NCBI GenBank assembly: GCA_024275095.1
Contig: JAJRZV010000050.1
Coordinates: 1,603-65,602 of the forward strand
Length of the DNA stretch: 64,000 nucleotides
Origin: a bacterium
GTDB lineage: Bacteria; JAJRZV01
Reading direction: 5' to 3'
The position numbers were made by a program, and so were the translations under genes. This document shows positions 39,089 through 42,863 of this stretch, piece after piece. Every line of letters begins with the position of its first letter. Position 1 is the stretch's first letter. The notes under the pieces are model-generated. The model was not told where the DNA came from and searched no databases. It saw only the letters and a list, made by a program, of their open reading frames with translations.

Positions 39089-39388
39089 ATGAGTGAGAAA
39101 AAACTCAATTGCTGGGAATTCATGAAGTGTGGACGTGAGCCAGGAGGTTCTAAGGTTCACGAGCTGGGTGTTTGTCCTGCAGCTACTGCTGAGAAGGCGG
39201 ACGGTCTCAACGGAGGTAAAAACGGTGGACGTATTTGCTGGGCCATAGCAGGCACTATTTGCGGCGGGAAAATTACAGGTACATTTGCACAAAAGAAAGA
39301 GACCTGCCTCAAGTGCGAGTTTTACAAGCGTGTGCGCAAGGAAGAGGGTATTTATTTTCAGGTGCTCATGCCTGGTCAGACAGCATAA
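39089..39388 (+). CDS. small cysteine-rich protein with duplicated CW...CG motif (two-CW-like)
   Basis: 99 aa, strong SD AAGGAGG; MSEKKLNCWEFMKCGREPGG...GVCPAA...GGRICWAIAGTICGGK...CLKCEFYKRV; 7 Cys; isolated between AT-rich intergenic DNA and a convergent gene. Confidence 0.6.
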   Translation: MSEKKLNCWEFMKCGREPGGSKVHELGVCPAATAEKADGLNGGKNGGRICWAIAGTICGGKITGTFAQKKETCLKCEFYKRVRKEEGIYFQVLMPGQTA

Positions 39389-39390
39389 AC

Positions 39391-40752
39391 CTACAGGCCG
39401 ATTTCCTGTTTGAGTTTGTTGAGTGACTGTTTTATGGCTTCTTCCGGATAGGCATAATCTTCCAGTTTTCCGGCAAGGTAGCTTTCATAGGCTGCCATGT
39501 CGAAGTGGCCATGACCTGAAAGATTGAAGAGAATTACCCGCTCTTTGCCTTCCTCTTTTGCTTTAAGTGCTTCATCTATTGCGGCTTTTACTGCATGGGC
39601 GGTTTCAGGTGCAGGTATAATCCCTTCTGTCCGTGCAAATGTAACGGCTGCTTCGAATACCTCGCGCTGGTGATATGCTGTTGCTTCAATGATGCCGTCA
39701 CTGTACAGCCGGCAGAGCAGTGGCGCGTCTCCGTGATAGCGGAGACCTCCCGCGTGAATGGCAGGAGGAACAAAATCATGCCCCAGGGTGTACATCTTGA
39801 GCAAAGGAGTAAGTTTGCCCGTGTCTCCGAAGTCGTATGTGTATTCTCCTTTGGTGAGAGTTGGACACGCTGCAGGTTCTACCGCGAGCAATCTCACATC
39901 GCGTCCGTTAATTTTGTCTCTGGCAAATGGAAATGCAATACCCGCAAAATTGCTTCCACCTCCGACACACCCGATAACCACATCGGGGTAGTCACCTGTT
40001 ATCTCCAGCTGTTTTTTTACCTCCAGGCCGATGATGGTCTGGTGAAGCAGTACATGGTTGAGCACGCTGCCCAGGGAATACTTTGTGTCATCGTGGGTGG
40101 CAGCATCCTCGATGGCTTCTGAGATGGCGATGCCGAGACTTCCGGGGGAGTCTGGATTCTGCTGGAGAATTTGGCGTCCTGCGTTGGTTTTATCTGATGG
40201 TGATGGAATTACGCTGGCACCCCATGTTTCCATGAGCACTCGACGGTAAGGTTTCTGACCGTAACTGACTTTCACCATGTAAACTGTGATCTCTAAACCA
40301 ATGAGCGCCCCTGCCATGGCAAGGGCACTTCCCCACTGTCCGGCTCCGGTTTCAGTGGTCAGGCGCCTCACACCTTCTTTTTTGTTGTAATAGGCCTGTG
40401 CAACGGCTGTGTTGGGTTTGTGACTTCCGGCTGGGGAGACGCTTTCATTTTTGTAATATATGCGCGCAGGAGTGCCGAGGTGCTTCTCCAGGTTCAGGGC
40501 CCGGTGCAGAGGGGTTGGTCTCCACAGGGCGTAGATGTCAAGGATTTCTTCAGGTATGGGAATTTCGCGCTGGGTGGAGACTTCCTGCTCGATGAGTCCC
40601 ATGGGGAAGATAGGAGCAAGGTCGTCTGGCCCGGCCGGCTGTTTTGTTTGGGGGTTGAGAGGTGGCTCAGGTGGTGTGGGCATGTCCGGGATGATGTTGT
40701 ACCAGAATCGTGGAATCTCGCTCTCTTTAAGTAAAATTTTTCTCTGGGACAT
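39391..40752 (-). CDS. TrpB2-type tryptophan synthase beta-chain-like PLP enzyme
   Basis: 453 aa; long TrpB2-type N-terminus (…[40 protein letters not shown]…) and GGGSN PLP-binding loop. Confidence 0.9.
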
Positions 40753-40861: not shown

Positions 40862-40890
40862 TTGACAAAATTCCTAAGAAATTGTTAAAA
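40862..40890 (+). promoter_or_regulatory. candidate sigma70-type promoter for the moeB/dsrEFH/tusA operon (weak -10)
   Basis: TTGACA (40862-40867), 17-nt spacer, TTAAAA (40885-40890), 11 nt before ATG 40902; in the divergent intergenic region between trpB2 and moeB. Confidence 0.2.
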
Positions 40891-40901
40891 AGGCCCTCAC
40901 C

Positions 40902-41711
40902 ATGAAACTCGATTTTACAGAAGAACAGATCAAGCGATACGCACGGCACATTATCCTTCCGGAAGTGGGAGGAGTGGGCCAGAAGAAACTTCTTTCTTCG
41001 AGGGTACTGGTAGTGGGTGCGGGAGGACTTGGTTCACCCGCGGCATATTATCTTGCGGCAGCTGGGGTGGGAACCATAGGTATTGTGGATTTCGATACCG
41101 TGGAGCTGTCCAATCTTCAACGGCAGATCCTCCATTCCACGTCCCGCCTGGGGATGAGTAAGGTTGAATCTGCAAAGAAGACCATAGAAGATTTGAATCC
41201 TGACGTGAAGGTGATAATTCATCAGGAAATGCTCACCAGCGAGAACATCTTTGATGTTATTGATGCATACGATATTGTTGTTGATGGAACGGATAATTTC
41301 CCGGTGAGGTATCTTCTTAACGACGCATGTTATTTTCGGAAGAAACCCCTTGTTCACGGAAGCGTATTTCGTTTTGAAGGCCAGGCGACGGTTTTTAAGC
41401 CGGATGATGGACCGTGTTACCGCTGCCTTTATCCTGAACCTCCTCCCCCCGGGATGGTGCCATCATGTCAGGAGGCGGGAGTACTGGGTGTGCTCCCCGG
41501 TGTGATCGGAGTGATTCAGGCAACCGAGACAATTAAGCTCGTCCTTTCCACCGGTAGACCTCTCATCGGTCGGCTGCTGATTTACAATGCACTTGATATG
41601 GAGTTCAGGGAACTGCAGTTAAGGAGACATTCTCAGTGTCCATTGTGTGGCGAGAATCCCACCATTACAGAGCTTATTGATTATGAAGAATTCTGCCAGG
41701 TCCGGATTTAA
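40902..41711 (+). CDS. ThiF/MoeB-family E1-like adenylyltransferase with C-terminal CxxC...CxxC
   Basis: 269 aa, nucleotide-binding VLVVGAGGLGSPAAYYLAAAGVG, two CxxC pairs (CYRC...CPLC); no rhodanese domain. Confidence 0.85.
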   Translation: MKLDFTEEQIKRYARHIILPEVGGVGQKKLLSSRVLVVGAGGLGSPAAYYLAAAGVGTIGIVDFDTVELSNLQRQILHSTSRLGMSKVESAKKTIEDLNPDVKVIIHQEMLTSENIFDVIDAYDIVVDGTDNFPVRYLLNDACYFRKKPLVHGSVFRFEGQATVFKPDDGPCYRCLYPEPPPPGMVPSCQEAGVLGVLPGVIGVIQATETIKLVLSTGRPLIGRLLIYNALDMEFRELQLRRHSQCPLCGENPTITELIDYEEFCQVRI

Positions 41712-41713
41712 AC

Positions 41714-42025
41714 ATGAGACGACTCGGCATTCTTCTCACGCGTTCACCGGAACAGGGAGAGTTTTCACTTGCACTGAGACTCGCGCGCACAGCCCTGAAA
41801 AAAGGTGTTGATGTTCAGCTTTTTCTCATGGGAGAAGGTGTATACGGGCTTTTGCATTCTGAAATTCAAAAGCTTGCAGCCGAGGGCGTGCGCATTATGG
41901 TGTGTCGTTACAGTGCAGAAAGAAAAGGAATACCCCGGGATTTTTACGGGAATGTGGACTCTGGCAGTCAGTATGACCTTTCCCATATGGTAGCACAATG
42001 TGATCGTTTTATTCCTCTCACGTGA
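41714..42025 (+). CDS. DsrE/TusD-like sulfur relay protein
   Basis: 103 aa; ...GVRIMVCRYSAERKGI... and C-terminal ...QCDRFIPLT align with TusD active-Cys and C-terminal motifs. Confidence 0.7.
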   Translation: MRRLGILLTRSPEQGEFSLALRLARTALKKGVDVQLFLMGEGVYGLLHSEIQKLAAEGVRIMVCRYSAERKGIPRDFYGNVDSGSQYDLSHMVAQCDRFIPLT

Positions 42026-42345
42026 GGTTTTACATGGCAAAAAACGTTGTAGTGGTAATACGTGATCATCCATTGTCTGGAGACTCCTTCAGCGAGGGAC
42101 TTCGCATGAGTGTTGGTATGACCATTGCGGGTAATCGTGTAACAGTAATATTGCCGGAAGGTTCTGATACTGATCCACGACCCGAAAAGGTGGGCCTCGG
42201 AGAGATAGACATGCACTTTGAAGGTCTCAGTGAGTTAAAAGTGACGGTATTGACCCGGGGAATATGCTCTGAAAGAGCGCGCATGATTGACCACATTGAA
42301 TTTAGAAATATTTTGGACACCAGCGATGTCATCATATTCTGGTGA
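42022..42345 (+). CDS. DsrF/TusC-like sulfur relay protein
   Basis: 107 aa, DsrE/F-family fold; 4-nt overlap with the previous gene. Confidence 0.65.
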   Translation: MRFYMAKNVVVVIRDHPLSGDSFSEGLRMSVGMTIAGNRVTVILPEGSDTDPRPEKVGLGEIDMHFEGLSELKVTVLTRGICSERARMIDHIEFRNILDTSDVIIFW

Positions 42346-42607
42346 ACACAACAGAACCCTCTTTATTGTGAAAAGGGTATTCGGCCATAAGGGTGAATTT
42401 GTTAAGCAACTTATGCGTTCAGGAGATATAGTTGTTCTCTCAATGGAAGGTGTTTCAGAGTTGCAAGGGAAGTGGCCTGAAGGTGTGACTCTAAGGGTTG
42501 TAAAAGAGGATGCTGAGGCTGCAGGGATTGAATGCAGTGATATGATTGTAAAAATGGAAGAGCTGGTGGAATTGATTTTCAGCTGTCGTAAAGTTGTTAT
42601 CTGGTAA
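42326..42607 (+). CDS. DsrH/TusB-like sulfur relay protein
   Basis: ORF 42287-42607 trimmed to internal ATG 42326 (MSSYSGEHNRTLFIVKRVF...), ~93 aa, third member of the DsrEFH triplet. Confidence 0.55.
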   Translation: MSSYSGEHNRTLFIVKRVFGHKGEFVKQLMRSGDIVVLSMEGVSELQGKWPEGVTLRVVKEDAEAAGIECSDMIVKMEELVELIFSCRKVVIW

Positions 42608-42617
42608 GGAGGTGGAT

Positions 42618-42863
42618 ATGAGAAAGAAGGTGAAAGTGGATGATGAGATAGACATACGTGGAGAAGTATGTCCGTACACCTTTGTGAAGGCAAAAGTGGC
42701 TTTGGAGCAGCTTCCATCAGGAGCTGTCTTGAAGGTTATACTGGACCATCCACCAGCACGTGAAAACGTACCGCGTAGCATGAAAAGTGAGGGCCATGAA
42801 ATTATTGAAATAGAAAATATCAATGATACAGATTTTTATATTCTTATTCGCAAAAAGAAGTGA
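42618..42863 (+). CDS. tusA: TusA-like sulfurtransferase
   Basis: Internal ATG 42618 after GGAGG; MRKKVKVDDEIDIRGEVCPYTFVKAKVALEQL carries the TusA CPxP-type motif. Confidence 0.75.
   Translation: MRKKVKVDDEIDIRGEVCPYTFVKAKVALEQLPSGAVLKVILDHPPARENVPRSMKSEGHEIIEIENINDTDFYILIRKKK

Follow-up and report, generated by a model that had tools for sequence, protein, structure and literature searches.

A stand-alone MoeB/ThiF-type E1 encoded with TusA and a DsrEFH-like trimer: a candidate sulfur-activation module for biosynthesis

Introduction

TtuC of Thermus thermophilus, which works beside the separate rhodanese TtuD, and UbaA of Haloferax are shared E1 enzymes that carry no rhodanese domain of their own, and for such enzymes the sulfur donor is either a separate rhodanese or unknown. 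Sulfur-assimilation operons with a rhodanese-less E1 always contain SirA/TusA, which has been proposed to act in the rhodanese role, and one type among them (row 4e of Table 1 in that survey) combines the E1 with a ThiS/MoaD-like carrier, a JAB peptidase, and SirA/TusA, including the HcyS/HcyF/HcyD methionine system of Wolinella succinogenes (Iyer, Burroughs and Aravind, 2006; PMC1779556). The thiocarboxylate route to homocysteine through MetO, MetM, Mec, and MoeZ is likewise established (10.1101/2024.10.14.618325), and among the DsrEFH relays, those of type II have recently been tied to sulfur oxidation in sulfate reducers (PMC13293266). Here we feature a compact operon found in 64,000 nt of a bacterial contig (JAJRZV010000050.1, assembly GCA_024275095.1), hereafter the window, in which the gene for a MoeB/ThiF-type E1 is followed by genes for DsrE-, DsrF-, and DsrH-like proteins and for TusA. 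At a probability of roughly 60%, we consider this operon to be a biosynthetic sulfur-activation module, in which TusA and the DsrEFH-like trimer would relay persulfide sulfur in place of the rhodanese domain of a MoeZ-type E1.

Several elements of this module are already known, namely the E1-like enzymes, E. coli TusA as donor to MoeB/MoaD, operons joining a rhodanese-less E1 to SirA, and the TusBCD/DsrEFH relays. Literature searches found no report that links DsrE or DsrEFH with ThiF/MoeB, nor one of a five-gene stand-alone module. The new elements are the DsrE-F-H heterotrimer wired to an E1, and a stand-alone five-gene module common to bacteria and Methanoperedens. A preliminary description of this DNA, made from the sequence alone, had called the combination of E1 and DsrEFH non-classical; this is right for the DsrEFH component but not for the operon type, as the pairing of a rhodanese-less E1 with SirA/TusA was described in 2006 (PMC1779556).

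Five Genes in a Single Unit

The operon occupies positions 40902-42863 of the forward strand, with every open reading frame (ORF) intact and almost no space between the genes. It opens with moeB/thiF (40902..41711), encoding a stand-alone E1-like adenylyltransferase of 269 amino acids (aa), followed by the dsrE-like gene (DsrE/TusD-like, 41714..42025, 103 aa), the dsrF-like gene (DsrF/TusC-like, 42034..42345, 103 aa), the dsrH-like gene (DsrH/TusB-like, 42326..42607, 93 aa), and tusA (42618..42863, 81 aa). All five starts are recorded gene calls in the protein collection, where each of the five products forms a singleton cluster and all come from a single NCBI contig of 73,832 bp. For the last three genes, the longest ORF would begin at GTG 42022, TTG 42287, and TTG 42594, respectively, but only the products from the internal ATG starts are identical to the recorded proteins, and each of these ATGs has a plausible ribosome-binding site, such as GAGG upstream of the dsrF-like gene and the strong AGGAGGTG site preceding tusA. 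Recomputed from moeB to tusA, the spacing is +2, +8 (or −4 with the GTG start of the dsrF-like gene), −20, and +10 nt, in agreement with the overlaps of 4-20 nt and the gaps of 2-10 nt that had been given before. A site scan within the block detected neither a terminator-like site on the forward strand nor a convincing promoter-like site. The five genes are supported as a single unit, and this unit is taken to be the block itself because the genes flanking it in the window are not kept beside the cluster in relatives.

The E1-Like Enzyme

MoeB matches the ThiF domain PF00899 at full length (292 bits, residues 13-247, profile positions 1-237 of 238), and the Gly-rich ATP loop can be read from its sequence as GAGGLGS. 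The zinc site consists of two CxxC pairs, Cys172/175 and Cys246/249, which are invariant in 81 orthologues. The C-terminus lies 20 residues past the second CxxC, and only the E1 part of the MoeB/MoeZ models, which have 387-392 positions, could be aligned, hence the protein is a stand-alone E1 with no rhodanese domain. The preliminary description of an E1-like adenylyltransferase with a CxxC...CxxC zinc site and no rhodanese is therefore borne out by PF00899, the NCBIfam alignments, and the cysteine positions. Orthologues have a modal length of 267-275 aa, and all 80 closest ones are devoid of a rhodanese domain as well.

Among the NCBIfam models, the subfamily model PRK05690 is the sole MoeB model that is passed (328 bits, cut-off 266). 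MoeB stays below the equivalog cut-offs of PRK08762 (434.6 against 449 bits) and TIGR02355 (259.3 against 376.55 bits), and also below those of MoeZ, ThiF, and UbaA, scoring 373 bits with the UbaA model. Given the fact that only a subfamily model was passed and the equivalogs failed, the carrier specificity of MoeB is not readable from its sequence. Two cysteines outside the zinc site are also invariant in the 81 aligned orthologues, Cys189 in the crossover loop (codon 41466-41468) and Cys265 (codon 41694-41696), the latter being placed five residues from the C-terminus (EEFC-QVRI). From this conservation on the C-terminal tail, Cys265 could plausibly accept a persulfide.

Three Small DsrE-, DsrF-, and DsrH-Like Proteins and TusA

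Single-sequence searches of the Protein Data Bank (PDB) with the three small proteins were uninformative. All three are singletons in clustering at 90% identity, an exact-match look-up of the DsrE-like protein returned no contig and a word-index search with it returned only itself, and a full HMMER scan with the single DsrF-like sequence gave only 15 weak relatives; families built from syntenic loci were used instead. The DsrE-like protein matches Pfam DsrE (PF02635, 47.3 bits), and the best PDB matches of its family profile are YchN, DsrE (2hy5_A), and TusD (2d1p_A). Its predicted sulfur-binding residue is Cys64 (MVC64RYSAERKG), which aligns with the cysteine of YchN and is the equivalent of Cys78 of DsrE. 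Conservation at this position, on which the preliminary description had let its reading depend, is complete in 15 aligned sequences and in the 19 of a second, script-made alignment, and the closest fragment (L081) retains the residue as CC. The cysteine-to-glycine spacing, C-x7-G, is that of TusD/DsrE.

As a single sequence the DsrF-like protein has no match in Pfam or PDB, while its family profile finds DsrF (2hy5_B) at E=2.7e-9. Its database relatives bear PF02635 and the JGI name "TusC/DsrF," and its AlphaFold2 (AF2) model, with a pLDDT score of 77, has template modeling (TM) scores of 0.73-0.78 to the folds of YchN, DsrF, and DsrE. The single DsrH-like sequence reaches 22.9 bits (E=7e-5) with the TusB/DsrH model TIGR03011, under its cut-off, and the family profile finds TM0979, a DsrH-like protein, at 3.6e-9, TusB (2d1p_C) at 1e-5, and DsrH (2hy5_C) at 1.9e-5. 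Its database relatives bear PF04077, with some sources naming them TusB/DsrH, and the only confident match of its AF2 model (pLDDT 75.5) is DsrH 2hy5_C, with a probability of 1.00 and a TM score of 0.57. The identities of the DsrF-like and DsrH-like proteins thus come from family profiles and AF2 models, not from single-sequence matches. Taken together, profiles and predicted structures confirm that the three small proteins each correspond to a different subunit of DsrEFH/TusBCD (E/D, F/C, and H/B).

How far these proteins have moved from the known relays can be seen in the equivalog models, with which the window proteins score 18.7 bits against a cut-off of 89.25 for TusD, give no match for TusC, and score 22.9 against 49.2 for TusB. 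The DsrF-like protein has retained the motif SExLRMxVGxT and lost, relative to most homologues, the DGVY motif and ~14 residues; the DsrH-like protein reads SMEGV where its family has IHDGVY, and keeps the C-terminal Trp of the family. Alignments of the DsrF family contain no conserved cysteine and neither do those of the DsrH family, in which the position of Cys20 of Allochromatium vinosum DsrH has none, Cys70 and Cys87 being the only cysteines of the window copy. By sequence, then, the three are divergent paralogues rather than a full TusBCD/DsrEFH set in the equivalog sense. The full set announced in the preliminary description stands as three subunit-matched paralogues with the DsrE cysteine, and has to be withdrawn as regards the equivalog scores, which are far too low, the missing DsrH cysteine, and the F and H copies, which are truncated or diverged. 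We considered whether the small ORFs are decaying pseudogenes, and rejected this: all are intact and retain the invariant residues of their families, and their deletions and E-F-H order recur in the nearest relative, which is 46% identical in F. Deletions held in common with the nearest relative argue for selection rather than decay.

TusA is recognized by PF01206 at 84 bits (cut-off 28.6), and falls under the NCBIfam equivalog cut-offs of TusA, YedF, and YeeD. Its Cys18 is found at the start of helix 1 in GEVC18PYTF, where CPYT has Thr in place of the second Pro of the usual CPxP, as in the MoeB-linked homologues. Identity is 44-58% to the MoeB-adjacent TusA of relatives, compared with 35-41% to a second TusA type that stands by another DsrEFH set. 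By analogy with the known relays, E, F, and H would form a physical complex that receives sulfur from TusA through a cysteine-dependent transfer, both the complex and the transfer being putative.

The E1/Relay Pairing in Relatives

When species-representative genomes were scanned with MoeB, 80 loci at 64-74% identity were obtained, and their neighbors were assigned by family mapping. TusA was found in 49 of the 80 loci by phmmer and in 62 by tblastn, and a ThiS/MoaD-like carrier in 53. JAMM peptidases and NIL-domain proteins are each encoded in 38 loci, a ThrC-like protein in 30, and CysM in 21, so that carrier, JAMM, CysM, or ThrC-like, at least one of the four, occurs in 56. A homologous E/F/H set is present in 18 loci, and in ~13 of these, as far as the ORF starts can be judged, the dsrE-like gene lies directly 3′ of moeB, as in the window. 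The constant partner of MoeB is TusA with the carrier, and the DsrEFH-like trimer is an accessory in about a quarter of the closest loci.

In Thermodesulfobacteriota the genes are arranged as Rrf2-ThiF-ThrC-like-ThiS-NIL-MoeB-CysM-JAMM-E-F-H, continued by a second E-F-H, a second TusA, and GcvH-like and lipoate-assembly genes, and the order in Nitrospinota is ThrC-like-ThiS-MoeB-E-F-CysM-H-TusA-NIL-Rrf2. The insertion of cysM between the F and H genes, seen in the Nitrospinota loci L020, L045, L076, L078, and L080 (~6.8-9.2 kb), is an unusually intimate link of a cysteine synthase with a DsrEFH-type set. A second sample, centered on the DsrF-like family and hence free of MoeB bias, consists of nine distinct contexts, six of which have a ThiF gene within the cluster. 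Candidatus Methanoperedens and a second archaeal genome each carry a ThiF-TusA-E-F-H block, whose five gene types are those of the window operon, with no carrier or CysM nearby. Direct adjacency of ThiF/MoeB and DsrE/F-like genes is seen in archaea as well as in several phyla of bacteria. The preliminary description had left room for an incidental coupling, should the E1 gene prove to belong to an unrelated operon in relatives; the 18 MoeB loci, the six DsrF contexts, and the two archaea favor a real one, and the coupling of E1 and relay is not incidental.

Some of these loci carry additional sulfur genes. A second and larger DsrE-F-H set (117, 116, and 90 aa), nearer to the TusD/C/B models, recurs by MoeB clusters in L001, L002, L006, and L086 (~9.0-10.5 kb), in L007, L012, and L079 (6.8-8.4 kb), and in L132 and L134. 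Its companions are a TusA of its own (CPYTL/CPYPL type), a DsrM-like (Nitrate_red_gam) and DsrK/HdrD-like (CCG) pair or fusion, a GcvH-like protein, and LplA-like and radical-SAM lipoate-assembly genes, and it looks like an uncharacterized membrane-linked sulfur-handling system attached to the biosynthetic cluster. A sulfite/nitrite-reductase-like Fe-S protein of ~338 aa is encoded upstream of TusA and MoeB in L006 (1778-2794) and in loci of Poribacteria (L032 and L037, for example); this gene arrangement hints that the relay may be loaded by sulfite reduction in some lineages. In two metagenomic contigs (L087 and L133, ~10.1-12.7 kb), MoeB-E-F-CysM-JAMM-TusA is followed by a second ThiF, a Sulf_transp gene of YeeE/YedE type, another TusA, a rhodanese, and Rrf2, an extension resembling a front end by which this pathway would take up thiosulfate.

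Partners and End Use

Compared with NCBIfam, the partners in relatives score above cut-off as a SAMP1/MoaD-family carrier, cysteine synthase B, and threonine synthase, and the JAMM protein is desampylase-like, below the cut-off. The carriers have GG followed by one to several extra C-terminal residues. Carriers with such an extension, as would be expected of the CysO/HcyS/MetO type, are in the state that is processed by JAMM peptidases of Mec/HcyD type. Threonine synthase is the usual mis-annotation of the homocysteine synthase MetM (GapMind, 2026). The partners amount to the set of tools with which cysteine and homocysteine are made by way of a thiocarboxylate in CysO-CysM-Mec-MoeZ of M. tuberculosis, HcyS-HcyF-HcyD of Wolinella, and MetO-MetM of Streptomyces. 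Because relatives set the E1/relay pairing among cysteine and homocysteine genes, the module is probably a supply line of sulfur for biosynthesis and not for energy metabolism, and, as far as gene content can tell, thiocarboxylate-dependent cysteine/homocysteine synthesis, rather than thiouridine synthesis, is its most likely end use. A shared role of the E1 in molybdenum cofactor (Moco) synthesis, thiamine synthesis, or tRNA thiolation is possible.

The preliminary description had proposed that the relay hands sulfur to an adenylated ubiquitin-like carrier, as in thiouridine or thiocofactor synthesis. The first half of this fits the SAMP1/MoaD-type carriers, JAMM, CysM, and ThrC-like proteins of relatives; thiouridine is not supported, as the context in relatives points to cysteine and homocysteine. 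Synthesis of 2-thiouridine in tRNA could employ either a TusA-TusBCD-TusE-MnmA relay or an E1 of TtuC/UbaA type with a TtuB/SAMP2 carrier and a TtuA/NcsA thiolase. TusBCD is indeed the closest functionally characterized biosynthetic homologue of DsrEFH, members of the H family reach the TusB domain cut-off, MoeB has its 373 bits on the UbaA model, and the downstream genes fmt, rsmB, and rsmI are related to translation. However, fmt and rsmB are not kept beside the cluster, the TusB/C/D equivalog scores are far under cut-off, the window search, which did not cover MnmA or TtuA/NcsA, turned up nothing TusE-like, and ~90 related loci contain zero TusE/DsrC and a single MnmA-like PP-loop gene, so that we regard this use as very improbable.

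An ordinary MoaD/ThiS adenylyltransferase, supplied by TusA and the DsrEFH-like trimer with sulfur for Moco or thiamine synthesis, would agree with the NCBIfam results, in which MoeB models rank first and the cut-off of PRK05690 is exceeded. It would also agree with the contribution of E. coli TusA to Moco synthesis, cited in PMC11094781, and with the window and the two archaeal loci, where no cysteine or homocysteine genes accompany the five-gene block. On the other hand, the gene listings contain no moaA/C/D/E or thiG/H/C in the blocks of related loci and none is evident in that of the window, the thiC of Methanoperedens sits in a divergent neighboring operon, and CysM, ThrC-like, JAMM, and C-terminally extended carriers together are not a feature of the MoaD/ThiS pathway. 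This alternative is accordingly judged unlikely.

A Proposed Path of Sulfur and Points Against It

For the biosynthetic module, we propose the following steps. MoeB would adenylate the C-terminal Gly of at least one small carrier of ThiS/MoaD/SAMP type, which would be encoded outside the window in the source genome. Since MoeB has no rhodanese domain, which supplies the persulfide in E1s of MoeZ/MOCS3/Uba4 type, the sulfur would come from the co-transcribed relay. An upstream source, which may be sulfide/polysulfide, thiosulfate, a product of sulfite reduction, or a cysteine desulfurase, would persulfidate Cys18 of TusA, and the sulfane sulfur would move on to Cys64 of the DsrE-like subunit within a compact DsrE-F-H heterotrimer; for DsrEFH type II, transfer from TusA to DsrE through the equivalent cysteine has been shown in vitro (PMC13293266). 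The persulfide would then attack the acyl-adenylate of the carrier on MoeB, with or without passage through Cys189 or Cys265 of MoeB, and reduction afterwards would release the carrier thiocarboxylate. Judging from the clusters of relatives, it would mainly be consumed by a cysteine synthase of CysM type, together with a JAMM peptidase, and by a ThrC-like homocysteine synthase of MetM type.

Several points weigh against this proposal. Known DsrEFH/TusBCD systems pass their sulfur to DsrC/TusE and not to an E1, and sulfide alone can turn acyl-adenylates into thiocarboxylates in vitro. Searches of the 64-kb window by tblastn, profile HMMs, and C-terminal motif scans found no ThiS/MoaD-like, DsrC/TusE-like, CysM, JAMM, or ThrC-like gene, which bears out the earlier statement that TusE/DsrC and a MoaD/ThiS-type acceptor are absent (MnmA and rhodanese were not searched for there). 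Carrier, JAMM, and CysM/ThrC-like are thus not encoded with the E1 in the window, and the end use in the source genome is a putative one. Moreover, most of the closest MoeB loci are of the type found in Nitrospirota, TusA-MoeB-JAMM-(ThrC-like)-ThiS-NIL, with no DsrEFH-like set, which implies that the trimer is dispensable for MoeB in general and that its exact role may be that of a relay, a buffer, or a specificity factor. The window copies of F and H are the most reduced members of their families and unusually diverged. E-F-H also occurs with no ThiF nearby, beside lipoate-ligase and radical-SAM genes in one case and alone in the other, in a Brocadiia locus (L084, 5607-8645) and a locus of ANME/Methanosarcinales (L088, 5771-6710), hence the trimer is not tied exclusively to an E1. 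In several relatives, finally, the window-type E-F-H adjoins the second DsrEFH set, the DsrMK-like pair, GcvH-like, and lipoate-assembly genes, which hints at other or additional roles.

The last two observations, namely E-F-H beside a DsrM-like/DsrK-like pair, GcvH-like, lipoate-ligase, and radical-SAM genes and a second DsrEFH, and elsewhere with no ThiF, would also suit a dissimilatory relay of DsrEFH type I/II to DsrC/DsrAB or to an sHdr-like system, serving sulfur oxidation or disproportionation, with moeB as a mere neighbor. The trimer of DsrEFH type II is small (~33 kDa), has its active Cys near position 67, and is syntenic with tusA (PMC13293266), and dsrEFH copies of Nitrospinota have been interpreted as markers of sulfur oxidation (PMC10839748). 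What makes this explanation rather improbable is that neither the window nor ~90 related loci contain a DsrC/TusE-like gene, that the gene listing of the window has no dsr, apr, or yeeE and the neighbors of the operon are housekeeping genes, that the linkage to ThiF recurs across phyla and domains, and that cysM is nested within the E-F-H set of Nitrospinota. In addition, MVCRYSAERKG has the spacing of TusD/DsrE type I, unlike EKICPFRGF of Electronema type II, as deduced from published mutagenesis primers.

Surroundings of the Operon

The gene content of the window is of housekeeping type, with a ribosomal protein operon, pyr genes, fmt, rsmB, and rpe in the gene listing, and an Rfam scan of the whole 64 kb gave zero matches to RNA families. 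Upstream of moeB, a candidate promoter can be picked out by eye on the forward strand at 40862-40891 (TTGACA, 17-18 nt, TG-T-TAAAAA); it stops ~10 nt short of the moeB start codon and is missing from the output of the consensus scan. If it is real, the moeB mRNA would be nearly leaderless, in keeping with the weak ribosome-binding site of this gene. On the reverse strand, a TrpB-like (TrpB2-type) pyridoxal phosphate (PLP) enzyme is encoded at 39391-40752, divergent from moeB at a distance of 149 bp, and matches NF009057 at 765 bits, well above the cut-off. This is a fold-type II PLP enzyme adjoining a sulfur-activation operon, but it is probably unrelated to it because the adjacency is not kept in ~90 related loci. 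Two nt from the stop of the TrpB-like gene and convergent with it, the forward strand encodes a cysteine-rich "two-CW domain" protein of 99 aa (39089-39388; NF045718, 117 bits). The TrpB-like enzyme, the two-CW protein, DUF362, an amidase, and fmt were all considered as parts of the system and rejected, as none of them adjoins the cluster in relatives.

Implications for Sulfur Donors and for dsrEFH as a Marker

Rhodanese-less E1s need an external persulfide donor, which is unknown in many anaerobes and archaea. The present operon, which ranges from Nitrospinota and Thermodesulfobacteriota to Methanoperedens, offers a concrete donor candidate that is testable in vitro. As a wider and tentative generalization, to which we give somewhat less than even odds, TusA with a miniature DsrE-F-H would be a dedicated persulfide donor that replaces rhodanese for stand-alone E1s of MoeB/ThiF/UbaA type in anaerobes of both Bacteria and Archaea, among them Methanoperedens. 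If this is true, the hitherto unidentified donor of sulfur to protein thiocarboxylates in these organisms would have been found, and a whole clade of "dsrEFH" genes that are now taken as markers of dissimilatory sulfur oxidation would be biosynthetic. Annotation as dsrEFH/tusBCD is widely used to infer sulfur oxidation, and genes of the E1-linked clade may be among those counted as such markers; counting the clade as dissimilatory would then mislead. The gain is incremental, consisting of a new component and a new stand-alone module, as the principle of TusA in place of rhodanese dates from 2006.

Comparison with Known Systems

Among described systems, the operons surveyed in PMC1779556 share with the present one a stand-alone E1 and TusA/SirA, and the relatives of MoeB lie in clusters of the same kind, with a carrier, JAMM, and sulfhydrylase-type PLP enzymes. 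They differ in that they have no DsrE/F/H, in that the window operon has no carrier, JAB peptidase, or PLP enzyme, and in that the relatives have CysM-type and ThrC-like PLP partners instead of O-acetylhomoserine sulfhydrylase. The CysO-CysM-Mec-MoeZ system of Mycobacterium tuberculosis and the MetO-MetM-Mec-MoeZ system of Streptomyces likewise use a thiocarboxylate made by an E1, a CysM or ThrC-like enzyme consuming it, and processing by JAMM, all of which roles are found in relatives. MoeZ has its own rhodanese, whereas TusA and the DsrEFH-like trimer stand here in its place, and the window has no CysO, CysM, Mec, or MetM.

With the TusA-TusBCD-TusE-MnmA relay of E. coli the operon shares TusA and three paralogues of the DsrE fold, of which TusD/DsrE contains the one active Cys. 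At 103, 103, and 93 aa, the window subunits are shorter than those of E. coli (128, 119, and 95 aa) and far under the equivalog cut-offs, and their operon partner is an E1, with no TusE in the window and, among ~90 loci, no TusE and one MnmA-like gene. DsrEFH type II, known from the YTD cluster (Plum-Jensen, 2026), resembles the trimer in the small size (103 + 103 + 93 aa here), the single essential Cys of DsrE (Cys64 here), the tusA gene in the operon, and the poor recognition by sequence models. It is unlike the present set in that the latter has no DsrH Cys and no dsr or yeeE gene nearby, and has ThiF, CysM, and a carrier, not dsr genes, as its linked partners. Synteny with yeeE/yedE, together with reductive dsrAB, is a trait of type II, and only two relatives have a Sulf_transp gene within 3 kb of the cluster. 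Compared by description and primer motif only, the type II protein of Electronema has SGEKI-C-PFRGF (deduced from primers) against MVCRYSAERKG. Metagenome pattern scans for the cable-bacterial dsrE, based on the published Cys67Ser primer motif, found none, and a looser scan gave 43 loci in which every ORF with the motif was spurious, most of them being antisense ORFs of gut bacteria.

Of the shared E1s, TtuC and UbaA are presumably comparable to the window MoeB, which we take to be, like them, a stand-alone MoeB/ThiF-type E1 of ~270 aa for ubiquitin-like sulfur carriers, and the difference from them lies in the TusA-DsrEFH-like relay that is encoded in its own operon.

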